DNA of 52,932 bases, from assembly GCA_964637725.1 (NCBI GenBank), contig CAZWXH010000001.1:1-52932 (forward strand), in the 5' to 3' direction. Positions 2,828-32,624 of this stretch are shown piece after piece. Both the position numbers and the translations under genes were made by a program. This DNA is from an uncultured Coprobacillus sp. (lineage in GTDB: Bacteria; Bacillota_I; Bacilli_A; Erysipelotrichales; Coprobacillaceae). The notes below the pieces were generated by a model. That model was not told where the DNA came from, made no database searches, and saw only the letters and a list, made by a program, of their open reading frames with translations. Position 1 is the first letter of the stretch. Each line of letters starts with the position of its first letter.

Positions 2828-2868
2828 CCATTTTCTCCTCTCCGTATTTTCACGCATTGCATATACTT

Positions 2869-3260: not shown

Positions 3261-3290
3261 CACATTGAATGTAAATTGAGTTGATTTTGA
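3261..3290 (+). repeat. Copy A of a ~30-nt direct repeat (CACATTGAATGTAAATTGAGTTGATTTTGA)
   Basis: Matches 7813-7842: 18 of the first 19 nt are identical, followed by a shared TGATTTT(T)GA with a 1-nt indel. Both copies are intergenic and inside the element. Confidence 0.55.
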
Positions 3291-3298
3291 GCATTTTC

Positions 3299-3327
3299 TT
3301 GTTGTGAACTTATGTTCGTGTTATAAT
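3299..3327 (+). promoter_or_regulatory. Extended -10 promoter for the STAND NTPase gene
   Basis: TTGTTG (3299-3304), 17 nt to TATAAT (3322-3327), preceded by TGt at 3319-3321. The predicted TSS lies downstream of the track's GTG start at 3304. Confidence 0.45.
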
Positions 3328-3384
3328 TCAGTTATATATTCGCTACGAATGCTGACAGACCGCTACATGGTCAGAAAGGACACT

Positions 3385-5694: not shown

Positions 5695-5706
5695 TACACA
5701 CAACCT

Positions 5707-5735
5707 AAGGAGTTCATGCGTGAACTCCTTTTTTA
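5707..5735. terminator. Bidirectional intrinsic terminator between the convergent STAND and relaxase genes
   Basis: AAGGAGTTCA-tgcg-TGAACTCCTT (10-bp stem) followed by TTTTT. Confidence 0.7.
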
Positions 5736-11299: not shown

Positions 11300-11395
11300 C
11301 CAATAATGTTGATTGGCAACTGGCTGTCATTCTTAAGTAAGATTAGACCCTTTAGCTTTGCGTCACTACTTTTCAGTAGTTTTGCTATTTACATA
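11300..11395 (-). promoter_or_regulatory. c-di-GMP-I (GEMM-I)-like riboswitch aptamer
   Basis: Minus-strand RNA: AGCAAAAC-ACUACU-GAAA-AGUAGU-GACGCAAAGC-UAAAGGGUC..UCUU-acuu-AAGA..GAC-AGCCAGUUGCC. It shares with the class I consensus (Vc2-type) the GCAAA element, a GNRA-capped hairpin, the invariant GACGCAAAGC, a second hairpin and the closing AGC..GUUxCC. Confidence 0.65.
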
Positions 11396-11404
11396 TCTGT
11401 TTAT

Positions 11405-15517: not shown

Positions 15518-16306
15518 TTATTGTTTTAATAAAATACGATCGTTATAATCATGAGTTGAAGATGAATATAAATGAATTAATTCATCAACACTCATTTTTT
15601 CTCTTTCTTTACCTTCTACAACTGCGATAATTTGACCATCTTTCATGATCATTGTTTTGTTACCATACTTAAGAGCATCTTCCATGTTATGAGTAATCAT
15701 TAATGTTGTAATTTGATGTTCATTAACAAGTTTAGATGATATATTCAATACTTTTTGAGCAGTCTTAGGATCTAAGGCAGCTGTATGTTCATCAAGTAAT
15801 AATAATTCAGGAGTAACATAAGTTGCCATTAAAAGCGTTAAGGCTTGGCGTTGACCACCAGATAAAGTATTAACTTTAACATCTAGTCTATCTTCTAATC
15901 CTAAGTCTAATTCTTTTAAAGCTTTTTTAAATGAATCTCTTTGTTTATGAGAAAATACTGAAAGACTAAAATGTTTTCCTCTTTGTGATGATAAGATAAG
16001 ATTTTCCTCAATTGTCATAGAGGGTGCTGTCCCTTTTAAAGGATCTTGGAATAATCTTCCAATAAAAGAAGAACGTTTATACTCTGGCATATTTGAGAGA
16101 TCTTGACCGTTTAATAGCACTTGACCAGAAGTCATGTCTACAGCTCCAGATATACTTTGAAATAAAGTTGATTTCCCAGCCCCATTGCTTCCGATAATAG
16201 TGACAAAATCACCTTTTTCTAAAGTCAGATTAATTGATGAAAGAGCAACTTTCTCATTAACTGTTCCTTCGTTAAAAACGACGGAAACATCTTTAAGTTC
16301 TAACAT
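15518..16306 (-). CDS. ABC transporter ATP-binding protein
   Basis: Walker A GSNGAGKST, signature LSGGQRQ, Walker B LLLLDE. Confidence 0.9.
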   Translation of the reverse strand: MLELKDVSVVFNEGTVNEKVALSSINLTLEKGDFVTIIGSNGAGKSTLFQSISGAVDMTSGQVLLNGQDLSNMPEYKRSSFIGRLFQDPLKGTAPSMTIEENLILSSQRGKHFSLSVFSHKQRDSFKKALKELDLGLEDRLDVKVNTLSGGQRQALTLLMATYVTPELLLLDEHTAALDPKTAQKVLNISSKLVNEHQITTLMITHNMEDALKYGNKTMIMKDGQIIAVVEGKEREKMSVDELIHLYSSSTHDYNDRILLKQ

Positions 16307-17163
16307 TTTCTTTTCCTCCTTTTTATGCTTGCAGAAGCAATAGCTATCACAACTAAGATAGCAGATAATAGTTTTAAATCACCTGAAGGAAGTCCTAATT
16401 GTAGTGCTAGTGTTAATATTGCACGATAGAAGATGGCACCAAAAACAACTGCTAATAATTGAAAACCAATCTTATCTTTCTTTATGAGAGTTGTCCCGAC
16501 AATAATACTTGCAAGACCAATAACCATCATCCCTATTCCACTGCCAATATCAGAGAATGATTGATGTTGAGCAAATATAGCCCCACTTAAAGATACAAAA
16601 CCATTAGCTATTGCTAAACCTAATATCTTCATCTTATTGGTATCGATTGAACTTGCTCTTACCATATCTTCATTATCACCACATGCTCTTAAAGCAAGAC
16701 CAAGTTGAGTTCTTAAAAAATAATAAAGAAACAAACAGATCAATATTACTATAACAGCAATGATAATGACTTTATGATAAGGATCAAAGCTTTCAAACAT
16801 CGAAAATATTGTAGTACTTTCAAACAAAGAGATGTTAGGTAAATCACCCATGACTCTTAGATTAATAGAATAGAGTCCCGTCATTGTCAATATTCCAGCA
16901 AGCAAAGGCATAATATTAAACTTTGTTATTAATAACCCTGTTACAACTCCTGCCAAGCAGCCAGCAACAAATGAAAGGAACAATCCTAAATATGGCATAG
17001 AATTGACTGCACAGATAGCACTCACTGCACACCCTAGTGTAAAACTTCCATCTACAGTTAAGTCTGGTAAATTTAAAATTTTATAGCTTATAAACAGTCC
17101 TAGTGACATAATCGCAAACATGCCACCAAGCTCTAATGCTCCTAAAACGATCGTTGAATTCAT
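16300..17163 (-). CDS. ABC transporter permease
   Basis: 287 aa polytopic membrane protein between the binding protein and the ATPase. Overlaps the ATPase start by 7 nt. Confidence 0.8.
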   Translation of the reverse strand: MNSTIVLGALELGGMFAIMSLGLFISYKILNLPDLTVDGSFTLGCAVSAICAVNSMPYLGLFLSFVAGCLAGVVTGLLITKFNIMPLLAGILTMTGLYSINLRVMGDLPNISLFESTTIFSMFESFDPYHKVIIIAVIVILICLFLYYFLRTQLGLALRACGDNEDMVRASSIDTNKMKILGLAIANGFVSLSGAIFAQHQSFSDIGSGIGMMVIGLASIIVGTTLIKKDKIGFQLLAVVFGAIFYRAILTLALQLGLPSGDLKLLSAILVVIAIASASIKRRKRKC

Positions 17164-17173
17164 ATCTATCCCT

Positions 17174-18163
17174 CTATTTCATTAAAGATAATGCTTTATC
17201 ATTTTTTATACTATCTGGTAGTGTAATATTTAAATCTTTTAATACTTTTTCATTTACATAAATATTTAAATTTTCTTTATATACTTTAACAGGTATATCA
17301 GTTACCTTTGTACCTTTTAAAACCTTATCAACCATATTGGCTGTTTCCTTACCTAAGTCATCATAGTTAATACCTACACTTAGAAATCCACCATCTTGAA
17401 CCATTGAATCAGCTCCAACATATAAAGGAATCTTTGCTTTACTACAAGCTGGTCCAACCACATTCATAGCTTTAGCAACTGTATTATCATTAGGTGCAAA
17501 TATGGCATCACATTTACTCGTTAATACATTGATTGCTGTTTGAACCTCATTAACAGAAGTAACTGTTGCTTCTACTAATTCAATATCTTTACTATCTGCA
17601 TAAGCTTTAGCCTTATTAATATTTGTTACTGAATTAATCTCTCCTTTGTTATAAATAACTCCTAGTTTCTTTAAATTAGGATTCACTTGCAATGCTCTTT
17701 CTAAAATTAACTCAACTTGAATTTCATCACTAGTCCCTGTTATATTCTTATCTGGCTTTTCTAATGAAGTCATTAAGTTCGCCCCAACAGGATCACTTAC
17801 AGCTGCAAAGACTACTGGAATATCCTTAGATAACTTAGCTGCTGCTTGAGCTACTGGTGTTGCTATTGCCATAACAACATCAGGATTACTAGCTTTAAAA
17901 CTATCAATAATACTACTAGCGGTATTATTATCCCCTTGGGCATTTTTAAAGATATATTCAATATTTTCTTTATCCTTATAACCTAACGCTTCCATTTGTT
18001 TATCAAATGCATCTTTAATTGTATTTAATGAAGTATGTTCAACTAGTTGAATAATAGCAACCTTCTTCATACTTTCATTATCTTTTTCACTTCCACATCC
18101 TACTAACATTGTTACAGCTAATCCAGCTGCTAATAAACCTTTAATTAATTGTTTTGTTTTCAT
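17174..18163 (-). CDS. ABC transporter substrate-binding lipoprotein (ABC_sub_bind/COG2984-like; candidate aromatic amino acid/Trp uptake)
   Basis: Lipobox LVGC. Alternating beta-alpha periplasmic binding protein pattern. Preceded by a T-box leader. Confidence 0.75.
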   Translation of the reverse strand: MKTKQLIKGLLAAGLAVTMLVGCGSEKDNESMKKVAIIQLVEHTSLNTIKDAFDKQMEALGYKDKENIEYIFKNAQGDNNTASSIIDSFKASNPDVVMAIATPVAQAAAKLSKDIPVVFAAVSDPVGANLMTSLEKPDKNITGTSDEIQVELILERALQVNPNLKKLGVIYNKGEINSVTNINKAKAYADSKDIELVEATVTSVNEVQTAINVLTSKCDAIFAPNDNTVAKAMNVVGPACSKAKIPLYVGADSMVQDGGFLSVGINYDDLGKETANMVDKVLKGTKVTDIPVKVYKENLNIYVNEKVLKDLNITLPDSIKNDKALSLMK

Positions 18164-18264: not shown

Positions 18265-18490
18265 AACAAAAAACACCTGTCCTATAAAAAGGACAGATGT
18301 TAAAATCTGCGGTACCACCTTAATTGGTTATAAATAACCCACTCAGTAAAAATGCTAACACATTTTCGCTTTATAACGTAAGCTCACGTCGCAGGATACT
18401 CGAATTTCTTTCCCCTTTGCCCTCGTAGGTCCATTTGCTTAACTGCCACTACCTAGATTCCACCACCCTAGGCTCTCTTTGAGTACATCT
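18265..18490 (-). promoter_or_regulatory. T-box leader (tRNA-sensing riboswitch), probable Trp specifier
   Basis: Minus strand shows a 5' AGAGAG motif. The T-box sequence AAGGUGGUACCGCAG has its GGUGGUACCGCAG core at 18307-18319. The terminator is ACAUCUGUCC-uuuuuaua-GGACAGGUGU plus UUUUUU (18265-18300). Candidate specifier UGG-A at 18431-18433 lies directly 5' of the closing helix CCUA. Confidence 0.8.
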
Positions 18491-18526
18491 TTAAACGTTA
18501 TCTCCTACTCATTAGTTTATGATATA

Positions 18527-18613: not shown

Positions 18614-19018
18614 CTAATGAGGAATATCATCCATATTTTTGTCTTCAAAGCTATAATGATCTTCAACACCACCAACCTTGAATAATACATATTGGCTATC
18701 ATTAATCCAATATTCTCCTGATAAAATTCCATTTTCTTCTTTTAATTTTTTCATTATTCCTTTGCATTCAGCATCTTTAATAATTTTATTCACCGTCGTT
18801 TCGTCCAATTCATTAGCGCCTGCTGAACCTGCTAAAGAAAGCTGATATTTTGAAGCTTTAATTTGTGCAACAACAGACCTTGTTTCAGCTACATATTTAT
18901 CCTGATCAACATCATCAAAATAATTCATCAAGCCTGGAACAGTTAATGCCATTAATACAGCTAATAGACAAACTGATACAATGATTTCAACTAATGTAAA
19001 ACCTTTTTTGTTATTCAT
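18614..19018 (-). CDS. Type IV pilin-like protein (second pilin, distal end of the locus)
   Basis: Class III signal peptide MNNKKG/FTLVEIIV with Glu at +5. Confidence 0.8.
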   Translation of the reverse strand: MNNKKGFTLVEIIVSVCLLAVLMALTVPGLMNYFDDVDQDKYVAETRSVVAQIKASKYQLSLAGSAGANELDETTVNKIIKDAECKGIMKKLKEENGILSGEYWINDSQYVLFKVGGVEDHYSFEDKNMDDIPH

Positions 19019-19019
19019 C

Positions 19020-20075
19020 TTAAATCATTGTACGCAATTCATTTTCATCATTAGTATATCTAATTGCGCTTTCCTTAGTAATTAAGTTTTGTCTAACTAG
19101 CTGAGATAAACTCATATTTAATGATTGCATTCCAATACTTCCACCAGTTTGAATCATACTGTTAATTTGATGAACTTTATTTTCTCTAATCAAGTTTTTA
19201 ATTGCACTATTAGCAATCATAATCTCTAACGAAGGAACTCTTGAGTTCCCATCTACAGTGGGAATTAATTGTTGCGTAACAACAGCATTTAATACCCCTG
19301 ATAGTTGAGCACGAATTTGTTCTTGTTTGTGGGGTGGAAAAACATCAATGATACAATCTATTGTTTTTGCAGCACCAATTGTATGAAGTGTAGAAAAAAC
19401 TAAATGACCTGTTTCAGCTAGTGTTATTACAGAAGCAATTGTTTCATAGTCTCTCATTTCCCCAACTAAAATAACATCAGGATCTTCACGCATTGCACTT
19501 CTTAAAGCTGTATCAAAACTCTCAACATCAGTTTCTACCTCACGTTGATGAATTAATGCTTGTTGTTGTTGATATACATATTCAATTGGATCCTCTATTG
19601 TTAGTATATGACATGGTTTTGTTTTGTTGATTTCATTTATCATGGCTGCTAAAGTTGTAGACTTACCACTACCAGTTGGTCCAGTAACTAAAACCAGACC
19701 TCTTTCATCTTCAGTTAAAGTTTTCATCATTGTAGGTAGTTTTAATTCTTCTAAATTTCTTATTGTTTCATAAATAATTCTAATAGCAGCACAACTATAA
19801 CCAAGTTCTTTATAAACATTAACCCTATAACGTTGTGTGTTTTCAACATAAACAAAATCAATATCTTTACCATTTTTAAATTGTTCTAATTGTTTAGGAG
19901 TTAACATTCCATAAATCATATCTTCAACATCACTTTGTTGTAATTGATGTTCATATGGAAATAACTTTCCATTATTTCTATAGACTATATGATTAGAACC
20001 ACCAAGATGAACATCAGAATAACCATTATTTCTTGCTAAATGTAAAATATCATTTAATTGATCCATTCCATTCAT
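19020..20075 (-). CDS. pilT: Type IV pilus retraction ATPase PilT
   Basis: 351 aa. Walker A GPTGSGKST. Asp/His box region GEMRD..TGHLVFSTLHT. Lacks the long N-terminal domain of PilB. Confidence 0.85.
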   Translation of the reverse strand: MNGMDQLNDILHLARNNGYSDVHLGGSNHIVYRNNGKLFPYEHQLQQSDVEDMIYGMLTPKQLEQFKNGKDIDFVYVENTQRYRVNVYKELGYSCAAIRIIYETIRNLEELKLPTMMKTLTEDERGLVLVTGPTGSGKSTTLAAMINEINKTKPCHILTIEDPIEYVYQQQQALIHQREVETDVESFDTALRSAMREDPDVILVGEMRDYETIASVITLAETGHLVFSTLHTIGAAKTIDCIIDVFPPHKQEQIRAQLSGVLNAVVTQQLIPTVDGNSRVPSLEIMIANSAIKNLIRENKVHQINSMIQTGGSIGMQSLNMSLSQLVRQNLITKESAIRYTNDENELRTMI

Positions 20076-20078
20076 CTC

Positions 20079-21752
20079 CTATCTTTCATAGAAAGAAATC
20101 TTTAATAATTCTTCAACAGATGTCTTTCCTTCTTCAACAAGTCTTAAAGTTTCATCAAATAATGAAGAATAATCTTGATTTCTGAGTACATAATCATAGA
20201 TATCTTGAATATCTCTTTTTTCAGTAATCATTTTCTTTATATTTTTATCAACATAAATCATTTCATGAACAGCAATTCTACCTTTATATCCAGTATGATG
20301 ACATGCTGGACAACCAACACTTTCATAAACAAAAGGAATTTCTTTTTTCATAATGCGTTTATCTTCATCAGTAGAAGCTACTTTTTTCATACAATGTGGA
20401 CATAATTTTTTTACTAATCTTTGTGCCACAATACCAACTAAACTATTTGCGACCATATATGGTTCAATACCCATATCTTGTAATCTGACAATAGTACTTA
20501 TAGCATCATTTGTATGAAGTGTAGAAACAACCAAGTGACCTGTAATCGCTGCTCTAACCGATGTAGATGCAGTCTCAGCATCTCTTGTCTCCCCTACCAT
20601 AATAATATCAGGATCTTGACGTAAGATAGCTTTTAACCCAGTTTCAAAAGTCAAACCAGCAACATTATTAACTTGCATTTGATTAATATGATCAAGATTC
20701 TTTTCAACAGGATCTTCAATTGTTAAAATATTAACCTGCTTCCTCGCTAGTTTTTCCATAATCATATAAAGTGTCGTTGTTTTACCAGAACCAGTAGGAC
20801 CTGTCACATAGATAATACCATTTGGACTATCCATCATACGAAGCATTGTCTTATATTTCTTTTCTTGCATACCAAAATGACTCGCATAATCAATCGGTGT
20901 ATTAGAATTTAAATATCTCATAACAATCTTTTCACCATGAACAGTAGGAACTATTGATACACGAAGATTCATTTTATCATCATTAATTGTAATAACAAAA
21001 TGTCCATCTTGAGGAATTCTTTTTTCAGAAATATTAAGATTTGCAAGTATTTTTGTTCTAACAACTAATGCATTATGAATATTCTTTTGTAATTTCATTG
21101 ATTCAATTAACATACCATCAATTCTCATACGAACTAATGTTTCATTCTCATAAGGTTCAATATGAATATCAGAAACATTAGTACTAAAACCTTTAGTTAA
21201 TAAAGAGTTTAGTAATTTAACAACTGGTGTGTCGTCATTTTCTGAATTATATATTTCTTGATCACTCAATTCAAACATAGATGTATCATTATTGACATTA
21301 TCAGCAGCAGCTCTCGCCTTTACCTCTGAATAGTAATAAGAAATTGCCTCTTTTACCGATTCTTCAATTGCCAAGCATATAATTAAGTCCATTCCAGTAA
21401 CTAAGCGAATATCCTCAAATCCATAAAAATTCATTGGATCACTTGTCACAACTACTAATTCATTATTACGAATTTCAGTCGCAATAATATTGTATTTAGT
21501 TGCTAAAGTAGAAGGAATCTTACTTACTGCATTGATATCAACATTAACACTATTTATATCAATAAATGGTTCTCCTAATTTAGTTGATAGAGCTTGTAAT
21601 GTTTGTTCCTCAGTCACAAACCCTAAATCAATTAAATGTTGACCCAATCTCTTACTTCTATCATTCTTTTGTGCTTCTAATGCTTGAACTAACTGTTCTT
21701 CATTAATATAACCTTGTTCTTTTAATACTTCACCTATCGGTATAGCTTTCAT
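20079..21752 (-). CDS. pilB: Type IV pilus assembly (extension) ATPase PilB/GspE family
   Basis: Walker A GPTGSGKTT. GETRD..TGHLVVSTLHTND. Tetracysteine CPHC..CPAC. N-terminal T2SSE_N/MshEN-like domain. Confidence 0.9.
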   Translation of the reverse strand: MKAIPIGEVLKEQGYINEEQLVQALEAQKNDRSKRLGQHLIDLGFVTEEQTLQALSTKLGEPFIDINSVNVDINAVSKIPSTLATKYNIIATEIRNNELVVVTSDPMNFYGFEDIRLVTGMDLIICLAIEESVKEAISYYYSEVKARAAADNVNNDTSMFELSDQEIYNSENDDTPVVKLLNSLLTKGFSTNVSDIHIEPYENETLVRMRIDGMLIESMKLQKNIHNALVVRTKILANLNISEKRIPQDGHFVITINDDKMNLRVSIVPTVHGEKIVMRYLNSNTPIDYASHFGMQEKKYKTMLRMMDSPNGIIYVTGPTGSGKTTTLYMIMEKLARKQVNILTIEDPVEKNLDHINQMQVNNVAGLTFETGLKAILRQDPDIIMVGETRDAETASTSVRAAITGHLVVSTLHTNDAISTIVRLQDMGIEPYMVANSLVGIVAQRLVKKLCPHCMKKVASTDEDKRIMKKEIPFVYESVGCPACHHTGYKGRIAVHEMIYVDKNIKKMITEKRDIQDIYDYVLRNQDYSSLFDETLRLVEEGKTSVEELLKISFYER

Positions 21753-21785: not shown

Positions 21786-23246
21786 TTATGAATTCTTCCA
21801 ATAATCATTTTGATATTGTAAATATGCTGAACTGTCAAATAAAATTGTTTGCTGCGAAGTTTGCCAATAATTGAGGCTTCCTGGATTTACTTTCAAACAC
21901 GCATTTTTTATATAAGAACTCTTTGTATCAAATAAAATATCTATTTTCATCCAACCACTATCAGGTGATCCGCCTGGAACAAGGCTTCTTTCTACATCAT
22001 CAATTTTAAAATATAAATCAAAATATGTTTGATCATTGTAATTGTTTTTAATTTTAACTATATCACCTTGCTTATAACTTTTGGTATTATCAAACAAGTC
22101 AATTCCATTTCTAGTTGGGTCTTTAAGCGAAGTCAAATTTTCAGGGAAAAACATTTCTAATATATTGCCTTTTTTATAAATAGATGTTGATATATATTCT
22201 TTAGAATCTAAATCACTTGTATCTAAAATAAGTTCCCAAACGCAATAATTGTTATACGGATCATCATCGATTAATACATTAATATTAAACCAATTTAACA
22301 AATAATTAGAAGAATCACACCAAACATTATCAGTTGCACGAAAATATTTGTTGTTATACATCACTATATCGCCTTTGGAATAACTACTATACATTTTATT
22401 CTCACTACTTGTAAAAGTAGGCCATGTCCAGTTTTTGTTTAGCCTTTTCCAATAACGAGTTTTCCCAGGCATATATTCAGATTCATTCGAGGATTCAGTT
22501 GCCTCCCACCATTCACCATTCCACCATACTATTTCTCCCTTTTGATATACATACCTGCCTTTAGGATTAAATAACCCCTTACAGTTTTCTGTTGAAATAT
22601 TTTGTATAATGTCAGCAACTGTTCCCGTTCTTCCGTTTTCAGGCTGACTATTTGTTGGTGGGATATACTTCTTATTGTAATAAATTCTATACCCATCTTT
22701 ATATTCATCATCATCACTTTCTTCAGAAATTGATTTATATTCACTTGGATATAGAGGTTCATTTTGTATTTCACTAGAAACACTTAAATTTAATAACATG
22801 AGAGTATCTCTAGAAGTATACGTATCTTCTCTTCCGTCATTTAATATATATCTAATATCAACTCTTACTTTATTTTGATAGTTTGCTTTTACAACCATCT
22901 TAAAATCTCTACCAGAATAAAAACCATCGCTAAAAACATCTATACCATCTCTATAAAGTTTATAATCTTTAATATAGAAATAGTGCCAGTTAGCATCATT
23001 TTGATAATCAGGAATATGGTTACTACTTGAATTCAATATTCTTACATCAGTAGCATATTCTATTTCTTCTCTTACAAATTCAATAACTGAGTCAACAGTC
23101 CTTTTATCTAAATCACGTTCAGAAGAAGTGTTTAATAAATTAGTTGAAGACAATATTAAAGTACCAGCTAACATTAATATAATTGATGCTAGCGCAATAG
23201 AAACAATAATTTCTACTAATGTAAAACCTTTTTTATTATGGTACAT
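21786..23246 (-). CDS. Large minor pilin (486 aa) with C-terminal CBM5/12-like repeats
   Basis: Prepilin leader MYHNKKG/FTLVEIIV. The C-terminal half has repeated Y-x-K/Q-G-D/E-I-V..N-G/N..W/F..A..P..W modules. Confidence 0.8.
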   Translation of the reverse strand: MYHNKKGFTLVEIIVSIALASIILMLAGTLILSSTNLLNTSSERDLDKRTVDSVIEFVREEIEYATDVRILNSSSNHIPDYQNDANWHYFYIKDYKLYRDGIDVFSDGFYSGRDFKMVVKANYQNKVRVDIRYILNDGREDTYTSRDTLMLLNLSVSSEIQNEPLYPSEYKSISEESDDDEYKDGYRIYYNKKYIPPTNSQPENGRTGTVADIIQNISTENCKGLFNPKGRYVYQKGEIVWWNGEWWEATESSNESEYMPGKTRYWKRLNKNWTWPTFTSSENKMYSSYSKGDIVMYNNKYFRATDNVWCDSSNYLLNWFNINVLIDDDPYNNYCVWELILDTSDLDSKEYISTSIYKKGNILEMFFPENLTSLKDPTRNGIDLFDNTKSYKQGDIVKIKNNYNDQTYFDLYFKIDDVERSLVPGGSPDSGWMKIDILFDTKSSYIKNACLKVNPGSLNYWQTSQQTILFDSSAYLQYQNDYWKNS

Positions 23247-23263: not shown

Positions 23264-24262
23264 TTATTTAACAACTTTAACGAATATAATACCTGCATCT
23301 CTAGTTACAGAATCATTTATAAATTCAAGCTCATTGAATTTAGCAAATTCATAAGTATTTATAACATCACCTTTTAAGTTATTTAAAACAGCATATGAAT
23401 AATTTCCTTGGACCGGTAATTGATCCGGATGTATTTTTCCACCAGCCTCTGGAAGCGGAATAATTGTCACATTCTCATTTAAATCAGTAATATGTATGAT
23501 AGTCCTTTCGGGAACATAATAGCCAAATAATATTGCACTGGTATGCTTTATTGAACTTCCCAAATATGATATATAAACCCATCTTATTTTTTTAGAATTA
23601 CCAACTAACTCTTTATATGTTTGTTCGAGAACAGTGAGTCCTCCATTAATAATATCTTTATTTGGATTTAACAGTGAATCAAAATAATTTGGAACATCCT
23701 TTGTGAATACATTATCAGCAGATAGATTATCCTTGACTGCGTTCGTTTCACTTCCTATCCTCTGATAAAATGAAAACTTATTTGTATTTGGAAATATTTG
23801 ACTGTATTGGTAAACGATGTCACTTAATTTAGTGGCAACTCTATACTCAACATCTAAATCATCTAAATTTGGTTCTTCAGGTTGTTGTACTTCTCCAGGT
23901 AACATTTCTGCTTTTTTTGTAGGATCAAATGCAAACAATTTAATTGATATAGGATTGATAACTTGAGTATAATAATCCGTAACATTTATAGGAGGATTAG
24001 CTGGATCATTCACAACTCCTTCACCATATTTAGATCCATCACTAAATTCAAATATCATCTTAGTTTCTGAACCATCCTCAACATCAATTCTATTAACTAA
24101 CTCATTATACAATCTATTTGTTTCACTCTTGATTGTAGAACTCTCAGTGAAAATATTAACAATATTAAATATACCTAAAATCAACATAGAACCAGCAATC
24201 GCTATAATCATAAATGTAATAACTGATTCAATAACAGTAAATCCTTTTCTATTCAGTCTCAT
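23264..24262 (-). CDS. Minor pilin-like protein (~332 aa)
   Basis: MRLNRKG/FTVIESV prepilin motif. Start moved to 24262 (GGAG RBS spacing), overlapping the stop of the upstream gene. Confidence 0.7.
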   Translation of the reverse strand: MRLNRKGFTVIESVITFMIIAIAGSMLILGIFNIVNIFTESSTIKSETNRLYNELVNRIDVEDGSETKMIFEFSDGSKYGEGVVNDPANPPINVTDYYTQVINPISIKLFAFDPTKKAEMLPGEVQQPEEPNLDDLDVEYRVATKLSDIVYQYSQIFPNTNKFSFYQRIGSETNAVKDNLSADNVFTKDVPNYFDSLLNPNKDIINGGLTVLEQTYKELVGNSKKIRWVYISYLGSSIKHTSAILFGYYVPERTIIHITDLNENVTIIPLPEAGGKIHPDQLPVQGNYSYAVLNNLKGDVINTYEFAKFNELEFINDSVTRDAGIIFVKVVK

Positions 24263-24710
24263 CGAATTCATCTCCGATCTTTGAATAAACTTTTTTATAC
24301 CAAGTTCCATCTTTCTTTTTCATCGTTAATTGAACTTCTTGTTCAATAGCATCATAAGTAGATGTCACCTTTATAAGAATTTCTTCTTTATTATTATATT
24401 CAATAACAACATTTACATCTATCCCATATGGAGAACCATTAGGTAATGTAACCTCAGTAATATTAACAGATGAATCCTTACTAGTAGGAATAAACTTAGT
24501 ATTATTATCAGCAATTTGTCCTGCAATCGTTTCTGCAACAGACAAACCAGTTAGATAAGCTTGTTTACGACTATGCTCATCAATTGATCTTTTTTGATTA
24601 GAAGTCGCTATTGTTAAAACAATCCCTAAAATGACAAGAATAAGCATAACAATAGAGACTGCCATTATTAAAATAGATCCTTTTTCATTAAGCTTTTTCA
24701 TCATTTTCAC
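24249..24710 (-). CDS. PilX/PilK-like pseudopilin (no Glu+5)
   Basis: N-terminus KGSILIMAVSIVMLILVILGIV followed by QAYLTGLSVAETIAGQ resembles the PilX N-terminal domain. Confidence 0.55.
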   Translation of the reverse strand: MKMMKKLNEKGSILIMAVSIVMLILVILGIVLTIATSNQKRSIDEHSRKQAYLTGLSVAETIAGQIADNNTKFIPTSKDSSVNITEVTLPNGSPYGIDVNVVIEYNNKEEILIKVTSTYDAIEQEVQLTMKKKDGTWYKKVYSKIGDEFDETE

Positions 24711-24716: not shown

Positions 24717-25325
24717 TTACTTTTTAAACATATAAACAACAATAGTTATTGATGTATTAGAATCATCAGAATCTCCACCATAATTAAAATTAGAGATTTC
24801 TATACCTTTCATATCATCTAAGTAAGCAACAACATTAGATATTTGTTCAAATGTTCCTTTTACTGAAACTGTAACAGTCGCTTGAACTAAATTACTTGAA
24901 ATAGTCGTATCTTTTTCTTCTTCACTTTTATTTGTCTGATCTTGTTGGTTAAGTACCACATTAGCATCATTATTAATACTTAATGATATAGGTTTTAATC
25001 TATGAGACAAAAAAGCAGTTGTTAATAATTTATCAATTTTTTCATTACTCATTAATGGATTATATTTAGCAATAATTGCTTCATAATTATCCTTTTTGAT
25101 TTTTAATTGATCAGGAGCATCAAGATAATCTTTTAATTGTTTTTCTAATGTTGGCTTTTGAGCAACGATAGAATCATATTGAGCAGAAGTTGCTATATAT
25201 GAATCGATCGTTGGTGTAATCACAAAAAACCAACCTGCAACGACAATAAGGAAACAAATAAGAATATATAACAATCTTTTTTCTCTACCAGATAATTGAG
25301 CATATATTTCTTTCATATTACTCAC
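24717..25325 (-). CDS. pilO: PilO-like pilus alignment protein
   Basis: Single N-terminal TM then a coiled-coil. Position after the PilM/PilN-like genes. Confidence 0.55.
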   Translation of the reverse strand: MSNMKEIYAQLSGREKRLLYILICFLIVVAGWFFVITPTIDSYIATSAQYDSIVAQKPTLEKQLKDYLDAPDQLKIKKDNYEAIIAKYNPLMSNEKIDKLLTTAFLSHRLKPISLSINNDANVVLNQQDQTNKSEEEKDTTISSNLVQATVTVSVKGTFEQISNVVAYLDDMKGIEISNFNYGGDSDDSNTSITIVVYMFKK

Positions 25326-25965
25326 CCACCTTTTTATCTAAAGATATTTTTACATTAAATCCATAGTCAACTTTTGCTTGTTCAACAATAATTGGATTTC
25401 CATTTTCATCAACCAATCCAGTTGTATCTATTGATTTAGATTCATTGATCTGATATCCAGAATATGACACATCAGTATATTCACTATGTTTCTTTAAAGT
25501 TGTAACATATTTTTCAATGTTTTGAACATTTTGTGAAGTTAATGAAGCAGTTAATAAATTAGTGTTTCTATCAAAAGAGATAGTTTTTAATGAAATTCCA
25601 TTTAATAAATCAGTTTTTAGATATGTAATACTTTTCTTAGTTAGGGTTGGTAACCCTGATAAAGAATTATCTAATTGTTCTAATGAAGTATAAATACTTT
25701 CTAATGAATGAAGTTCATTATATGGCTTTTGATCAGTAGAATCGATTTTTAATTGAATGACTTCATTATCAAGAATAGCATTATTTAACTTATCAGTCAT
25801 ATCCATCTTCATTAAATAGATAGTCCCAAAAGCAATCGCAATAATACCAACTAAAATCATTGGAACAGCCATTATTTTCATTGTATTAGATAGTTGGGAA
25901 CTCCCATCTTTTCTATTATAAGCAGCAAGTAGATCTAATTCTTTCTTTGAGATCTTATAAGACAT
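25318..25965 (-). CDS. pilN: PilN-like pilus alignment protein
   Basis: Bitopic protein with one TM (MAVPMILVGIIAIAFGTIYL), between the PilM-like and PilO-like genes. Overlapping stop/start. Confidence 0.5.
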   Translation of the reverse strand: MSYKISKKELDLLAAYNRKDGSSQLSNTMKIMAVPMILVGIIAIAFGTIYLMKMDMTDKLNNAILDNEVIQLKIDSTDQKPYNELHSLESIYTSLEQLDNSLSGLPTLTKKSITYLKTDLLNGISLKTISFDRNTNLLTASLTSQNVQNIEKYVTTLKKHSEYTDVSYSGYQINESKSIDTTGLVDENGNPIIVEQAKVDYGFNVKISLDKKVGE

Positions 25966-25977
25966 ATTATTCCCCTC

Positions 25978-26880
25978 CTATCTTCTAAGTAAATATCCAA
26001 CTGGATAAACATAATTGTTAATATCAAATTGTTCATTATTATCTTTAACAGCATAAATAGATTTACTATTAGGTAACACTTTTGCTGAAATATCTAAAGT
26101 TGAACGAATTCTTTCAAATACATGACCTTGTATATCTGAATCTAAACCAAATATATAGATATCATTCATAATTTGATCTCTATGGCTAGAAGTCGCAAAT
26201 TGTTTTAACTGAGAAACAGTACTGACAATCTCTGTTTCAAACTCTTCAGTTCCCTTATTCGCAAAAATACGAGATCGATTTGTTAAACTATAATCATTGT
26301 TTGCGAATAAAACACTGACAACGTTATTACCATCAACATGCATTAAAGCATATGTTTTATCAATAAACCCTGTTAAATTCTTAGTTAATGATATTAAGAC
26401 ATTAACTGCATAATCAATAGATAAAATCTCAATACCAACATCACCAAAAGCATCAAGATAATCTTTTATAAATTTTCTTTCAACACCTACACATAATATT
26501 TGACTTGCTTTTTTATTCTTTTCATCTTCATTTAAAAAAGCATAATCAAATATTAAATCTTCACTATTACTATCTATTAAAGATAATTCATCTTTCACAA
26601 ATTGTAAAACTTCCTTTTGTTTCATCGTTGGAATAACAGCAGGTTTTGCTAAAATCTTTGTACTATCAACAATCAACTTAACTTCTTTAATTCCTTTTGA
26701 AGTTAAAGTCTTTAAAACATTTTTCAGTTCAATATCATTAATAATAACACCATTAAGCATTGTCCCTTCTTTTAAAGGCAAATGATAATAATCTAAAACA
26801 CGAACAACATCTCTTTTCATTTCTCCTACAACAACTTGTATATCTTCATTTGAAATATAAATAATATTTTCCTTATTCAT
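25978..26880 (-). CDS. pilM: PilM-like actin-fold pilus assembly protein
   Basis: 300 aa cytoplasmic protein directly downstream of pilC. The call rests mainly on size and position; the ATP-binding motifs are weak. Confidence 0.55.
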   Translation of the reverse strand: MNKENIIYISNEDIQVVVGEMKRDVVRVLDYYHLPLKEGTMLNGVIINDIELKNVLKTLTSKGIKEVKLIVDSTKILAKPAVIPTMKQKEVLQFVKDELSLIDSNSEDLIFDYAFLNEDEKNKKASQILCVGVERKFIKDYLDAFGDVGIEILSIDYAVNVLISLTKNLTGFIDKTYALMHVDGNNVVSVLFANNDYSLTNRSRIFANKGTEEFETEIVSTVSQLKQFATSSHRDQIMNDIYIFGLDSDIQGHVFERIRSTLDISAKVLPNSKSIYAVKDNNEQFDINNYVYPVGYLLRR

Positions 26881-26891
26881 GTTTTATCCTC

Positions 26892-28085
26892 CTAGCTTCC
26901 TGCGCCAACACTTCCATATAATGAATATAACGGAAGCATAACTGAAATAATAACAATACCAATAATAAAACCTAATATAATAATCATTAAAGGCTGGAGT
27001 AAAGTTACCATCTTTTCAGTTGCCATTTCAGCCTCATAATCAAAATCATCTGCTATGTTTGTTAACATATCATCTAACTTACCACTTTCTTCACCTATAT
27101 AGATAGAACTTGCAAGCTTATCATCAAATCCATCTACAGAAGCAATGGCTTGAGATAAATTCATACCATCACGAACATTCTTAATTACTTCATCAAATTG
27201 AGATTCGATATAAGTATTATTAATCGTTGACTTAGCAAGTGTTAATGAGTTCAACATAGAAACACCACTTGTATATAAAGAACTCATACTTCTCGCAAAT
27301 CTAGCTGTATAAATAATACTTGTTAAATGACCAGCTTTAGGCATTTTGACTTTAAACTCATCCCATTTTAATCTAACACTAGTGACTCTTAGTGACATTG
27401 TAATGACACAAATTAAAATTAAAGTAGCAATAATAAACCATACCCAATGAGCAGTTAATGCTCTAGAAATCGCAAACATGACTTGGGTAACCATAGGAAC
27501 ATCATGTCCCTCAAACATTTCAAAGAAATTAGGTAAAATAGCAGTAAATACTGCAATAACAACAAATACAGTCACAACAACTAAGATCATTGGATACATC
27601 ATTGCACTTCTAACTTTTCCTTGAAGCTTATAATCTTTATTAAATTGAACTCCTAACTTTAATGATGTTACATCCATCATACCAGTAGATTCAGCTGACC
27701 TAAACATATTAATCATTAATAGAGGAAAAGCATTTCCTTGAGCTTCTAAAGCAGCTGATAAAGAAAAACCTTGTTGTAACTTAACATAAACATCTTTATA
27801 AATCTTTTGAAGAAGAACATTTGGTGTTCTTTTCACTATAATATTCATAGCCATAATTAAAGAAATACCTGATGACAACATAGTTCCAAGTTCTCTACAA
27901 AAATCAGATAAATCATTTGTCTTAATCTTCTTATTATTTGATTTCTCAACAATCTCTTTTGCTTGTAAAAGATATAAATTCTCAGAACGCAATAAAGCGA
28001 CAAGTTCTTCTCGAGAATTTGTCTCAACCTTACCATTAAATTTCTTAGAATTTATATCCTTTGCAATATACTTGAACATTGCCAT
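26892..28085 (-). CDS. pilC: Type IV pilus platform protein PilC/GspF family
   Basis: 397 aa with two repeated GspF-like cytoplasmic domains and three TM segments. Confidence 0.85.
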   Translation of the reverse strand: MAMFKYIAKDINSKKFNGKVETNSREELVALLRSENLYLLQAKEIVEKSNNKKIKTNDLSDFCRELGTMLSSGISLIMAMNIIVKRTPNVLLQKIYKDVYVKLQQGFSLSAALEAQGNAFPLLMINMFRSAESTGMMDVTSLKLGVQFNKDYKLQGKVRSAMMYPMILVVVTVFVVIAVFTAILPNFFEMFEGHDVPMVTQVMFAISRALTAHWVWFIIATLILICVITMSLRVTSVRLKWDEFKVKMPKAGHLTSIIYTARFARSMSSLYTSGVSMLNSLTLAKSTINNTYIESQFDEVIKNVRDGMNLSQAIASVDGFDDKLASSIYIGEESGKLDDMLTNIADDFDYEAEMATEKMVTLLQPLMIIILGFIIGIVIISVMLPLYSLYGSVGAGS

Positions 28086-28097
28086 AAATTCACTCCC

Positions 28098-28865
28098 CTA
28101 TCTTAACCCAAACATTCCTAAATACATATCTAGAATACTTTGACCATACAACAAAGCAACAAACATTCCAAAACAAATATAAGGACCAAAAGCAATATGT
28201 CCCTTTTTATCAATCTTATGACTGATTAATAAATAACCAGCATAAATACCAGCAATCACCACAGCAATAAACATTCCTACTAATACCATTTGCCATCCTA
28301 AGAATAAACCACATACAGCAAGTAACTTGATATCCCCTCCACCAAATGAATCAGGAATAATCAAATTCAAAACATATAAAGGTGCACTAATCACAAAAAA
28401 ACCAATAGCACGATCAACTATACTCATATCCATAAAACCAATACTTATTAAAGCAACAAATAAACAGCTTATAACTAAACCATTAGGTATAATCATTATA
28501 TCATAGTCAATCATAAAAATCGCTAATAAAATTATCGAAAATGCAAAAGAAATCAATGTCATAGCATCAATTCCATACCTTTGGAAGCATAAACATGCTA
28601 AAACACCACCAATAAACTCAATTATTGGATATCTAGCCGATATTGGTTCACCACAAAATCTACATTTACCACGTAAAAACAACCAACTCAATACTGGTAT
28701 CATATCATATGGCTTTAGCGTATTATGACATTTTGGGCAAAAACTTCTCCCTTTTGTAAAGTCTAATTCCAGAGGTACACGATAGATGACAACATTAATA
28801 AAACTTGCAATACATGTCCCTATCACAAAAGCATAAACATATAAAAATATCATTATTGGTTCCAT
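28098..28865 (-). CDS. pilD: Prepilin peptidase (A24 family) PilD
   Basis: N-terminal CPKC..CRFC zinc motif. Polytopic membrane protein with GGGDIKL and a second Asp region. Confidence 0.9.
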   Translation of the reverse strand: MEPIMIFLYVYAFVIGTCIASFINVVIYRVPLELDFTKGRSFCPKCHNTLKPYDMIPVLSWLFLRGKCRFCGEPISARYPIIEFIGGVLACLCFQRYGIDAMTLISFAFSIILLAIFMIDYDIMIIPNGLVISCLFVALISIGFMDMSIVDRAIGFFVISAPLYVLNLIIPDSFGGGDIKLLAVCGLFLGWQMVLVGMFIAVVIAGIYAGYLLISHKIDKKGHIAFGPYICFGMFVALLYGQSILDMYLGMFGLR

Positions 28866-28893
28866 TCTATCTTCCTCCCTATTAAAGTATGAA

Positions 28894-28912
28894 ACCCTCT
28901 CAAAGAGAGGGT
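28894..28912 (-). terminator. Hairpin (probable partial terminator/attenuator) between pilA and pilD
   Basis: Minus-strand ACCCUCUC-uuu-GAGAGGGU followed by UUCAUACUUU, 20 nt after the pilA stop. Confidence 0.55.
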
Positions 28913-28932
28913 AACAATTTTAAATATAAAAT

Positions 28933-29379
28933 TTAAGGTGCAGCAGTAATAACAACATCTCCATTAGGAGTCAATACTGCTTTTTCTCCACCAGTAAAAA
29001 TAATTGTATAAGTCGTCACTGTTGAGACATCTCCGCCTGCAGCAAGTCCTGCTACATCGATATCTTTTATCAAAGTCTTCTTCCCTGTTTCAGATTTATT
29101 AACTTCTTCCATTGCTTTTTTTAAAGCTCCATCTTTACCTGTATCTAAGTCATCAGCAACAATACCAGCAGCAGAAGCTTGCGCCTTAGCTAACTCAGTT
29201 TGAGAACTAATAAATGCTCCTCGAGCCGTAGACATATATTTAGCATTATCTGCCTCCCCCATGTATTTCAATACTGAAGGCACAGCAACAGCCATTAATA
29301 CAGCTAAGATAACTACAACAACAATAATTTCAATTAACGTAAAACCTTTTTTATTCTTCATAAGTTTTTTGATATTCAT
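28933..29379 (-). CDS. pilA: Major type IV pilin PilA
   Basis: Leader MNIKKLMKNKKG/FTLIEIIVVVVILAVLMAVAVP. 148 aa. First gene of the locus, with a strong GGGAGGA RBS. Confidence 0.85.
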   Translation of the reverse strand: MNIKKLMKNKKGFTLIEIIVVVVILAVLMAVAVPSVLKYMGEADNAKYMSTARGAFISSQTELAKAQASAAGIVADDLDTGKDGALKKAMEEVNKSETGKKTLIKDIDVAGLAAGGDVSTVTTYTIIFTGGEKAVLTPNGDVVITAAP

Positions 29380-29627: not shown

Positions 29628-32624
29628 ATGATGACAACTCCATCAAAGAAAACAAATAATAACAATTATAATTACTCTAAAGACTGTGATTCTATGGTTT
29701 ATAGAGGAGATAATGTTAATCATATTAGAACATTATTTCATATGATTTCTATCTTTATTAAAGTTGATGATATAGCAACTTTTATTTTGGATGATAATCA
29801 AAAAATCTCTGGTTTTTATGATTTACATCAAACTATATTTGATAAGGATTTTTTTGTTTATTATCATGCTTATTTAAAAGAAGCAGAAAATCCTATTCAA
29901 TTAATTAATGAGTATTTTAATACTAAGAATTATATAGCGATTTGTTCTTTAGTGAATGAACAAGAAGTTGTTGGATATATTGTTTTCAAAAGAGTTGAAA
30001 AAGCTTTTAATATGGACGAAATAAATATAATGACTCAATGTTCTCATGTATACAGTCAATATTGTCTCGATATTAACCAATATAAGAATACAAACTTTGA
30101 AAAGAGTATTTATCATACAATGATTAATAACATTGATTCAAATGTCTATGTTACTGATCCTTACACATATGAAGTCTTATTCATGAATGAAGCGATGAAA
30201 AAGATTTATAATATTGAAAACCCTGTTGGAAAAAAATGTTGGGAACTTTTTAAGTGTGGTAGAGATAAGCCATGTGATGAATGTCCAGTTCCACGACTTC
30301 TTGAATCCCCTACTGATTCTTATACATGGGAAGAATCAAGTGATTATAACCAAAAGAATTATTTAAATCATGATTGTTTGATTGAATGGTTTGATCATTC
30401 TTTGGTTCATTTTCAACATTCTGTTGATATAACACATTTAAAGGAAATAACATTTGATGCTTCTTATGATGAACTTACTGGTATTTTTAATCGTAAAACA
30501 GGAAAAAGAATGTTGAAGAGTCAGTTGAATTTAGCAGCTGACAACAATAAAGAAACAATTGTTTGTTTATTAGATGTCAATGATCTAAAGAAGATCAATG
30601 ATTCTTTTAATCATTCAAAAGGTGATGAAGCACTTCGTCTTATTTCTTCACATGTCAAAAAACATATGAAAGAAAATGATGTTTTCTTTAGATTAAGTGG
30701 TGATGAATTTATAGCTTCTTTCTATGATTATAGTTATAGTGAAGTAAATAGTATAATGCGTAATACTTTAAGAGACTTAAGGCAATATGCTTTAAAGAAG
30801 AAGTTAGAGTATGATTTATCATTTTGTTATGGATTATATATAGTTGATGATTCTTACAATCTTACTGTTAATGAAATTATCAGCAATGCTGATGAGAAAA
30901 TGTATGAATGGAAAAAGAAAGCTCATTTAAGAAATGCTCAAAAAGAGTTAAAGAATAAACAGCCTATTGGTGAAGTCTTTGATTATAATGAAAAATTATT
31001 ATATAGTGCCCTTTCTAAGAGTACTGATGATTATATCTTTATCTGTAATATGAAGACTGGTGTTTTTAAATACACCCCTAATATGGTTGAAGAATTCAAC
31101 TTCCCTGCTCAAGTTTTACACAATGCTGCAGCAATTTTTGGCGCTAAAATTCATATGGCAGATAAATATGAATTTTTAAATGCTAATCAACAAATTACTG
31201 ATGGTAAATCAGATAGTCATATTGTTGAGTATCGTGCTTTAAACAAAGATAATGAATATGTTTGGTTACGTTGTCGTGGACATGTTGAATATGATGAAAA
31301 TAATGAAGCGGCTATATTCGCTGGTTTTATATCTAATCTTGGTCGTAAAAACTATCGTGATATATTAACAGGACTTTATAATAGATTTGAATTTGAGAAG
31401 GTTACTAATCAAAACATTGATGAAGAATATACTGTTATATTAATCAATATTAATGACTTCAAGAGTATTAACAATCTATATAATCGTGAATTTGGCGATA
31501 ATGTTCTTCGTATTATTGGTCAAAATCTTCAAACAATACTTGCTAATAAAGCCACTGTTTATAAATTAGATGGTGATGAGTTTGCGATTTTAACGAAGGA
31601 AACAAGTATTAAAAAAATTAAGAGTTTATATAATGAAATCTTGTCATATATTAATGAAAATCATACATATGATGATAAATCTTATATTCTCTCTATTACT
31701 GCTGGAGTTGCGCAAGCCCCTAAAGATGGTAATTCTTATTTAGATATTCAAAGAAGTTGTGAAATAGCATTACAATTTGGAAAACATAACACCAGAGATA
31801 AATTAACTTTCTATAGTGAAAAGATCAACACAAAAAGAACTTATCAAGTTCAACTTGTGAATACATTAAAACAATGTATTCAAAATAACTTTGAAAATTT
31901 CTTCCTTGTTTATCAACCAATTATTGATATCAAAAATCATTATATATGTAAAATTGAAGCTCTTTGTCGTTGGAAAGTTCCAATGTTTGTTGATATTGGT
32001 CCTGATCGTTTTATTCCACTATTAGAAGATACTGGCGATATCATTGAACTAGGATATTGGATTTTTGAAGAAGCTATCTCACATCTTAAAAAATGTTTAG
32101 AAACAAAACCTGATTTATCAATTAGTATTAATGTCTCATATATCCAACTCTCTGAAGGACAGTTTGTTAATAAGATTATGAATATCATTAATAAATATGA
32201 TGTTCCCTATCAAAATATTATTATTGAATTAACCGAGACATCAATCGCCAAGAATTCTCAATTTATCATAAAAGCTATCAACCAACTCAGAAGTCTAGGT
32301 ATAAAGATAGCTATGGATGATTTTGGAACAGGTTATTCTTCTCTTGCATTACTTAAAGATGAACCATTGGACATTGTGAAAATAGATCAATCTTTTGTTA
32401 AAGGTATTGAATCAAATAGCTTTAATCGAACATTTGTCAAACTTATTATTGAACTCTGTCATCAACTTCATCTTGCAGTCTTAATTGAAGGTGTTGAAAC
32501 AAAAGCTGAATTAGATGAACTTCTTTTACTGGATCCTGATTATATTCAAGGATACTACTTTAGTAAACCCTTATTAGAAGAAGAACATATAAAATCACTA
32601 CAAAATCAAGAAGTCACTTTATAA
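29628..32624 (+). CDS. Multidomain c-di-GMP phosphodiesterase: GAF-like / Cys-rich PAS-like / degenerate GGDEF (SGDEF) / PAS / degenerate GGDEF (DGDEF) / EAL
   Basis: EAL signature set is intact (EALCRW, INVS, ELTE, DDFGTGYSS, KIDQSF, EGVE, QGYYF). The GGDEF sites read RLSGDEF and KLDGDEF. Cys cluster CWELFKCGRDKPCDEC. Confidence 0.85.
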   Translation: MMTTPSKKTNNNNYNYSKDCDSMVYRGDNVNHIRTLFHMISIFIKVDDIATFILDDNQKISGFYDLHQTIFDKDFFVYYHAYLKEAENPIQLINEYFNTKNYIAICSLVNEQEVVGYIVFKRVEKAFNMDEINIMTQCSHVYSQYCLDINQYKNTNFEKSIYHTMINNIDSNVYVTDPYTYEVLFMNEAMKKIYNIENPVGKKCWELFKCGRDKPCDECPVPRLLESPTDSYTWEESSDYNQKNYLNHDCLIEWFDHSLVHFQHSVDITHLKEITFDASYDELTGIFNRKTGKRMLKSQLNLAADNNKETIVCLLDVNDLKKINDSFNHSKGDEALRLISSHVKKHMKENDVFFRLSGDEFIASFYDYSYSEVNSIMRNTLRDLRQYALKKKLEYDLSFCYGLYIVDDSYNLTVNEIISNADEKMYEWKKKAHLRNAQKELKNKQPIGEVFDYNEKLLYSALSKSTDDYIFICNMKTGVFKYTPNMVEEFNFPAQVLHNAAAIFGAKIHMADKYEFLNANQQITDGKSDSHIVEYRALNKDNEYVWLRCRGHVEYDENNEAAIFAGFISNLGRKNYRDILTGLYNRFEFEKVTNQNIDEEYTVILININDFKSINNLYNREFGDNVLRIIGQNLQTILANKATVYKLDGDEFAILTKETSIKKIKSLYNEILSYINENHTYDDKSYILSITAGVAQAPKDGNSYLDIQRSCEIALQFGKHNTRDKLTFYSEKINTKRTYQVQLVNTLKQCIQNNFENFFLVYQPIIDIKNHYICKIEALCRWKVPMFVDIGPDRFIPLLEDTGDIIELGYWIFEEAISHLKKCLETKPDLSISINVSYIQLSEGQFVNKIMNIINKYDVPYQNIIIELTETSIAKNSQFIIKAINQLRSLGIKIAMDDFGTGYSSLALLKDEPLDIVKIDQSFVKGIESNSFNRTFVKLIIELCHQLHLAVLIEGVETKAELDELLLLDPDYIQGYYFSKPLLEEEHIKSLQNQEVTL

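Follow-up and report, generated by a model that had tools for sequence, protein, structure and literature searches.

Here we describe a modular type IV minor pilin from an uncultured Coprobacillus sp., encoded on a 52,932-nucleotide (nt) stretch of contig CAZWXH010000001.1 (assembly GCA_964637725.1), hereafter called the window. The protein, 486 amino acids (aa) long, is a type IV prepilin according to its signal sequence, its predicted lollipop fold and the cognate machinery encoded around it, and it would presumably be incorporated into filaments. Our data support homology between its C-terminal half and carbohydrate-binding modules of families 5 and 12 (CBM5/12), whose fold it is predicted to adopt, in four modules arranged as two tandem pairs. 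We estimate at about 60% the probability that it is an adhesin whose modules bind a polysaccharide or a glycan-rich surface multivalently. The canonical chitin-contacting residues of CBM5/12 are not conserved in these modules, so that chitin is only one candidate ligand among several.

Prepilin signal and pilin module

The start codon of the gene, an ATG, is preceded by the ribosome-binding site GGAGGTG, 8 nt upstream. The N-terminus of the product reads MYHNKKG-FTLVEIIVSIALASIILMLAG, that is, a short basic leader ending in Gly, with a hydrophobic segment of about 20 residues behind it. The sequence FTLVE, which follows the leader, places Phe at +1 and Glu at +5, with cleavage predicted after G7. 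Both the Pfam N_methyl model (29.3 bits, cut-off 21.2) and TIGR02532 (25.2 bits, cut-off 16.3) exceeded their cut-offs on this protein. An earlier sequence-only reading of the window had claimed a normal prepilin N-terminus, a head of pilin size and an acidic linker for this 486-aa protein, all of which were borne out. The peptides that it quoted were all located in the open reading frame (ORF): SEESDDDEYKD starts at residue 174, YVYQKGEIVWWNGEWWEAT at 232, PGKTRYWKRL at 260, YSKGDIVMYNNKYFRATDNVW at 289, YKQGDIVKIKNN at 391, YFDLYFKI at 408 and PGGSPDSGWMKI at 424. The region that it had singled out, positions 21837-22574, corresponds to residues 225-470.

In the full-length AlphaFold2 model (predicted local distance difference test score, pLDDT, of 77.5), a helix at residues 10-62 (53 residues) and strands at residues 67-150 make up the pilin module, and short beta-strands follow in the C-terminal part. 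A Foldseek search of the Protein Data Bank (PDB) with this model matched the PilB pilin of Streptococcus sanguinis (7b7p, E 7e-4). The linker between head and modules has an isoelectric point (pI) of 4.4, and pLDDT falls below 50 at residues 177-182 and 196-203. Its conservation within the family is low, Y190 excepted.

Four repeated modules related to CBM5/12

The sequence-only reading had reported at least three tandem repeats of a Y-x-x-G-D/E-I-V...W pattern in the C-terminal half. The pattern is real, and the count is four modules, not three. The strict motif Y..G[DE]I[VI] occurred three times in the six-frame translation of the window, always within the ORF of the pilin, and at least three copies were reached in none of 20,000 shuffles of the protein. 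Based on these counts, the repeat is not a product of chance.

The bounds of the modules (M1 to M4, table 1) were obtained from an alignment of 111 family members. Each module has an aromatic residue about 6 residues upstream of the sequence Y-x-x-G-D-[IV]-V, after which come a turn and one or two aromatics, in most cases also Pro-Gly, and Trp closes the module. Compared with one another by hhalign, the profiles of the four modules gave probabilities of 83-98%. The core Tyr (residues 234, 289, 391 and 445) and the core Trp (266, 337, 432 and 483) are kept in 94 to 111 of the 111 members. M4 of the Coprobacillus protein is degenerate, its near-invariant G-D being replaced by N-A.

Homology to CBM5/12 was judged from family profiles and not from the protein alone, because the single-protein Pfam/NCBIfam match is sub-threshold and scans of single modules were weaker still (E 0.008 for M2 and 0.12 for M3, with no match for M1 or M4). 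A phmmer search of the PDB with the protein alone returned nothing significant, only a marginal match to All3316 of Anabaena. The Pfam check suggested by the sequence-only reading gave a divided answer: the protein by itself stays below the cut-off of CBM_5_12 (PF02839), and 15 of 20 close relatives matched that model, the best at E 2.5e-8. A profile built from 106 members aligned with the tandem C-terminal CBM12 pair of Vibrio chitooligosaccharide deacetylase (COD) at E 4e-11, in one alignment running across M1 and M2. The chitinase modules 2rts, 1ed7 and 4tx8 were matched more weakly by the same profile.

The Vibrio pair (VcCDA 4ny2, VpCOD 3wx7, VhCOD 8yh4; PMC12506485) is the best match of our tandem pairs both by profile and by structure, and its core pattern is the same, Y-x-x-G-D/E-x-V-x-Y-x-G-x-x-Y...P...W. 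Unlike the pairs described here, it is secreted and attached to a CE4 enzyme instead of a pilin, and it keeps a Trp before Pro that is absent in the pilin family.

The structural comparison points in the same direction. The top PDB match of the full-length model was Vibrio COD (4ny2/8yh4), with 121 aligned columns, a root-mean-square deviation (rmsd) of about 3.0 Å and E 2e-4. Further matches were the chitin-binding domain of ChiA1 (1ed7, TMt 0.67), fibre proteins of Agrobacterium phages and Anabaena All3316. A separate model of residues 343-486 (pLDDT 85, predicted template modelling score, pTM, of 0.80) matched the COD CBM12 pair over 110 columns (rmsd 4.3 Å, probability about 1), and the same phage fibres as well. 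Thus, the models of both module pairs superpose on the Vibrio pair. Among predicted viral structures (BFVD), the best matches were phage proteins annotated as chitin-binding type-3, ChiA1-BD or CBM5/12. The models and matches together suggest an architecture made up of a pilin module, an acidic linker and two CBM12-like tandem pairs.

Related modules also occur outside chitinases and pilins. All3316 (PDB 7b5h chain AE), a baseplate-associated protein of a contractile injection system, matches M1 by profile (E 9e-6) and by fold, and is another non-chitinase context for the module. The family profile also retrieved, through the M1-M2 unit, giant proteins with 7 to 30 matching stretches (E to 1e-83). 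The four that were scanned with Pfam are plain PF02839 arrays, with E from 1e-27 to 1e-135. Giant and phage-fibre arrays (P0072, P0117 and P0144; BFVD entries; the fibres of Agrobacterium phages 7-7-1 and Milano, 9rkv and 8fqc) share tandem modules and a structural match with the Coprobacillus protein, but they lack a prepilin N-terminus and are likely to be receptor-binding fibres rather than pilus subunits. P0072 (4341 aa), P0159 (5585 aa) and others contain up to 30 tandem CBM5/12 double units. Some of these arrays carry collagen-like G-x-y stretches. The N-terminus of one of them weakly matches Mtd_N, a phage tropism determinant.

Possible binding surface and candidate ligands

The CBM5 and CBM12 modules of chitinases and lytic polysaccharide monooxygenases (e.g., Bacillus circulans ChiA1, 1ed7, and CjCBM5, 6z40) resemble the pilin modules in length (45-70 residues), in core Tyr and Trp, in the G-D turn and in the predicted fold. 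In CBM5 and CBM12, the conserved first Tyr and last Trp belong to the hydrophobic core, and in CBM5 chitin is contacted by a consecutive surface Y-W or W-W pair and a third aromatic, the importance of the pair having been established by mutagenesis and nuclear magnetic resonance (PMC8449059). The pattern Y...GD.V...W, which the sequence-only reading had taken for a carbohydrate-binding signature, consists of such fold-core Tyr and Trp residues (PMC8449059). It does not coincide with the ligand-binding residues. The CBM5/12 assignment itself stands, by homology and predicted fold. The surface pair and third aromatic of the chitinase and monooxygenase modules are not conserved in the pilin family, so that the proposal of a chitin or glycan lectin keeps its homology and fold and loses the expected binding residues.

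The family consensus is polar at the canonical binding positions, in the alignment of the 111 members and in that with the Vibrio modules. In CBM12, the contact with chitin is made by a Trp shortly ahead of the conserved Pro (W-x-P motif). This Trp shows as 'DWaP' and 'DWTP' in the profile alignment of the Vibrio COD modules and is the equivalent of Trp687 of B. circulans ChiA1. The giant PF02839 arrays are equally poor in canonical chitin-binding aromatics, suggesting that the pilin modules belong to a branch of the superfamily without established ligands. Extra aromatics specific to the pilin family are found at positions 239, 241 and 246 of M1 (F/Y239, Y241 and W246) and 301 of M2 (Y301). 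They would lie on the outer face of the first hairpin and could form a different platform or, alternatively, a packing interface between modules. Besides chitin, the ligand might be another insoluble polysaccharide, a glycan on a host or microbial surface, or another cell. DNA was set aside as a ligand, the C-terminal region being acidic (pI 4.9).

Proposed function and alternative explanations

By analogy with known systems, the following sequence of events may be envisaged. PilD, encoded in the same operon, would cut the prepilin after Gly7, and the protein would enter a pilus built by PilB, PilC and PilMNO by way of its hydrophobic alpha1 helix and small pilin head. Most likely, it would form a tip-priming complex with the two neighbouring minor pilins, comparable to those reported for the Com pilus and PilABC of S. 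sanguinis (PMC12153270, PMC9934059). Display at or near the tip is a reasonable analogy, since the protein adjoins a ComGG/GspK-like pilin without Glu5. The flexible acidic linker (about 40 residues) would allow the four modules (about 280 residues) to project outwards and bind a polysaccharide or glycan-rich surface multivalently, and retraction driven by PilT would pull the cell onto that surface. Incorporation into pili, location at the tip and adhesive function are what we infer from these data.

Several of our results weigh against this explanation. On the protein alone, PF02839 scored 22.0 bits (E 1.7e-4), short of the cut-off of 26.2. Its assignment to the GspJ/ComGF class of minor pilins is based on a ComGF model (NF041002) that scored 26.2 bits against a cut-off of 80, with no Pfam T2SSJ match, and otherwise on the NCBI names of homologues ('PulJ/GspJ family', 'FimT family'). 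The pTM of the full-length model is 0.55, which makes the relative placement of the domains uncertain. Of the family modules, 6% have a Y-W or W-W pair and 27% have an aromatic among the 3 residues that precede Pro. Finally, conserved residues belong mainly to the fold core, a situation that would also be compatible with a purely structural role.

The modules might be bona fide chitin-binding CBM5/12, by which the pilus would attach to chitin of fungal walls, dietary particles, arthropods or the peritrophic matrix. The nearest solved relatives by profile and by fold are indeed the CBM12 and CBM5 modules of chitin-active enzymes, and in M1 of the Coprobacillus protein a Tyr two residues before Pro (E-Y-M-P-G) occupies the position of the 'DWaP' Trp of Vibrio COD. 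However, only about 9 of the 111 members have an aromatic there, and the Y-W or W-W pair is as rare as stated above. Moreover, a search for genes of chitinases or other glycoside hydrolases in the window found none, and the fold is common in phage fibre-like proteins, of which chitin is not the expected target. We therefore regard chitin-specific attachment as unlikely.

It is less probable still that the modules serve only structure or assembly, as a bulky cap that stabilizes or primes the tip or aids passage through the thick cell wall. Such a role would fit the concentration of family-conserved positions in the fold core (Y, G-D, V, W), the fixed rather than accessory place of the gene in the operon and the evolutionary rate of the modules, which equals that of the pilin head. 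Nevertheless, related lineages use a 178-aa homologue made of the pilin module alone, suggesting that assembly itself does not require the extension, and Kandleria retains a short paralogue of the pilin head beside the long modular form. In every characterised context, furthermore, the CBM5/12 fold is a binding module.

A pseudopilin of a secretion- or competence-type filament, instead of a subunit of an adhesive retractile pilus, is hinted at by the three minor pilins, among which weak NCBIfam matches to ComGF, ComGE and ComGG occur, and by the name PulJ/GspJ that NCBI gives to homologues, but it is very improbable: the ComG-type scores are far under their cut-offs, the operon encodes PilM, PilN, PilO and PilT, which are typical of type IVa pili, as well as two candidate major pilins, and the acidity of the C-terminal region is unfavourable for DNA binding.

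Pilus operon and neighbouring genes

The gene of the modular pilin is the ninth of 12 in a compact operon on the (-) strand, with flanking gaps of 17 and 33 nt. The operon order is pilin (148 aa), PilD, PilC, PilM, PilN, PilO, a 153-aa minor pilin, a 348-aa minor pilin, the modular pilin, PilB, PilT and pilin (134 aa) (table 1). These data support the view that the type IV pilus operon is complete, PilT included, and that the protein is one of its minor pilins. The minor pilins number three, not four, and all of their ComG-type matches are weak.

Table 1. Positions of the modular pilin gene, its parts and the flanking portions of the pilus operon in the window
Feature	Position	Strand	Basis
Modular minor pilin gene, 486 aa, stop codon included	21786..23246	(-)	ORF list, ribosome-binding site, relatives
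Class III (prepilin) signal peptide and start of hydrophobic alpha1-N helix, residues 1-26	23168..23246	(-)	Pfam N_methyl, TIGR02532
Rest of pilin module, residues ~27-165	22752..23167	(-)	alpha1 helix to residue 62, then antiparallel beta-sheet (AlphaFold2)
Acidic, partly disordered linker, residues ~166-207	22626..22751	(-)	SEESDDDEYKD and conserved strand YRIYYNKKY
First tandem pair, M1 (~222-272) and M2 (~273-342)	22221..22583	(-)	Family profile vs Vibrio COD; Foldseek; best Pfam stretch 287-304
Poorly conserved segment between the pairs, residues ~343-381	22104..22220	(-)	Mean pairwise identity 13% vs ~30% elsewhere
Second tandem pair, M3 (~382-438) and M4 (~439-486)	21789..22103	(-)	Separate model, Foldseek, hhalign to M1 and M2 83-98%
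Upstream part of operon: pilin (148 aa), prepilin peptidase PilD, platform PilC, PilM, PilN, PilO	24717..29379	(-)	Pfam N_methyl, A24_N_bact, Peptidase_A24, T2SSF, PilM_2, T2SSM
ComGG/GspK-like minor pilin, 153 aa, without Glu5	24249..24710	(-)	Weak NCBIfam ComGG_2 match; sequence KGSILIMAV
Minor pilin, 348 aa, G-F-T-V-I-E motif	23264..24310	(-)	Weak N_methyl match
Downstream part of operon: extension ATPase PilB (557 aa), retraction ATPase PilT (351 aa), pilin (134 aa)	18614..21752	(-)	Pfam T2SSE and MshEN, T2SSE, N_methyl

The 153-aa protein without Glu5 is a candidate tip cap. It resembles proteins of 351 aa and 159 aa encoded in two syntenic loci, L014 and L015, respectively, the latter from Kandleria vitulina (JHWI01000011.1). 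For the 348-aa minor pilin, a search among 5.8 billion clustered proteins found no homologue but itself. The syntenic loci hold genes of similar size (311 aa in L014 and 293 aa in L015), whose products show weak similarity at the N-terminus only. The 348-aa pilin is evolving extremely fast.

Three genes for cyclic di-GMP (c-di-GMP) turnover lie near the operon. They encode a PAS-GGDEF-EAL protein (998 aa, 29628-32624 +), divergent from the first pilin gene, a GGDEF protein (362 aa, 36784-37872 +) and a PAS-GGDEF protein (574 aa, 39322-41046 +). A c-di-GMP riboswitch was sought ahead of the pilus operon and none was found there, unlike the case of pilA1 in Clostridioides difficile. Directly downstream of the operon, a T-box leader (106 bits) with a terminator (18286-18521, -) precedes an operon for an ABC substrate-binding protein and transporter (15518-18163).

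Family, distribution and possible origin

An exhaustive search recovered 150 representatives at E <= 1e-30, about 105 of which are full-length proteins of 430-760 aa that combine the pilin with the repeats. The architecture is therefore common to more than 100 sequence clusters. All named members come from Erysipelotrichales, namely Kandleria vitulina (WP_029070434.1), Candidatus Stoquefichus massiliensis and metagenome-assembled genomes of Erysipelotrichaceae. Their public annotation mentions only 'PulJ/GspJ family', 'FimT family' or 'prepilin-type' proteins. In GCA_977040915.1, the gene order around a 512-aa homologue is identical to that of the window, and a 647-aa homologue of K. vitulina also lies within a pilus cluster. 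A scan of contigs with a generic prepilin peptide pattern yielded mostly unrelated pilins, with true family members only in L001 and L002.

The 178-aa homologue without modules belongs to Angelakisella (Oscillospiraceae) and is encoded directly upstream of pilB, a position that matches that of the modular pilin in its operon. This finding fits a scenario in which the minor pilin existed first and the modules were added to it later.

The short paralogue of K. vitulina (174 aa, 16570-17094 of JHWI01000011.1) matches the pilin head of the Coprobacillus protein at E 1e-11 over residues 46-174. Its N-terminus looks like an ordinary transmembrane segment and not like a prepilin motif. It is encoded directly upstream of pilB, the place held by the modular pilin in the window, and the 647-aa modular form is found elsewhere in the cluster.

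Other features of the window

A c-di-GMP-I riboswitch (11312-11396, -; 77 bits, E 1.5e-13) was found just downstream of a MatE gene. It lies about 200 nt upstream of a 467-aa ORF resembling RNA (uracil-5)-methyltransferases (9712-11115), with a small unannotated ORF possibly in between. A gene of this type would be an unusual candidate for c-di-GMP control. The first part of the window (1-7040) has a G+C content of 36-39%, against about 29%, and encodes a large serine recombinase, a KilA-N protein, an AAA/TPR protein and a MobA/VirD2-type relaxase. This part therefore probably marks the border of an integrated mobilisable element.

Comparison with other modular pilins and significance

The sequence-only reading was not aware of a Gram-positive pilin with such a fusion, a statement that proved too broad. 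Two Gram-positive modular pilins have been characterised in S. sanguinis, namely PilB, with a von Willebrand factor A (vWA) module, and PilC, whose ConA-like lectin has sialylated glycans and glycosaminoglycans as ligands (PMC8179133, PMC9934059). In addition, a 2021 InterPro survey counted 264 modular pilin architectures, including carbohydrate-binding ones, and its Dataset S1 lists the combination of pilin and CBM5/12 (IPR012902-IPR003610) once (Raynaud et al. 2021; PMC8179133).

Much like the Coprobacillus protein, PilB and PilC belong to a Gram-positive type IVa system, consist of a small pilin module, a short linker and bulky C-terminal binding modules, are encoded beside other minor pilins and have been proposed to form a tip complex, and the extra module of PilC is a lectin. 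The extensions themselves differ, being an Ig-like fold plus the ConA-like lectin in PilC and vWA in PilB, as opposed to four CBM5/12-fold modules in two tandem pairs. Apart from the prepilin motif, we detected no relationship in sequence. For PilB and PilC, crystal structures have been solved and ligands measured, whereas the protein described here is known from its sequence and predicted models. Another parallel comes from Ruminococcus albus, also a Gram-positive gut anaerobe, in which type IV pili mediate adhesion to cellulose (PMC6916266). That work centres on the major pilin GP25, whose own cellulose binding is not established, and describes no minor pilin bearing a CBM (PMC6916266).

What is new here is a large, operon-conserved family from Erysipelotrichales, with four modules in two COD-like pairs and without the canonical chitin-binding residues. 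Conceptually the finding is incremental, since modular lectin pilins were known and the architecture had been counted once. It would nonetheless extend the modular-pilin principle described in S. sanguinis by a fourth kind of carbohydrate-type module, which would also be the first to be tandem and multivalent. The C-terminal modules are overlooked by public annotation in more than 100 sequence clusters.

Erysipelotrichales abound in the guts of humans and animals. They are poorly studied, and next to nothing has been learned about their means of attachment to particles, mucus or other microbes. The family described here offers a concrete and testable candidate for such attachment. A more specific and rather doubtful proposal is that it represents a conserved pilus tip adhesin of Erysipelotrichales, in which the family-specific aromatics of the two double CBM5/12-fold units, instead of the classical W-W or W-x-P sites, would build a non-canonical surface. 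The glycan recognised by it would be one relevant to the gut, for instance chitin or glucan of fungal walls, mucin or the surface polysaccharide of another bacterium. If so, these common gut commensals would possess a retractile, multivalent grappling hook that determines where they attach.

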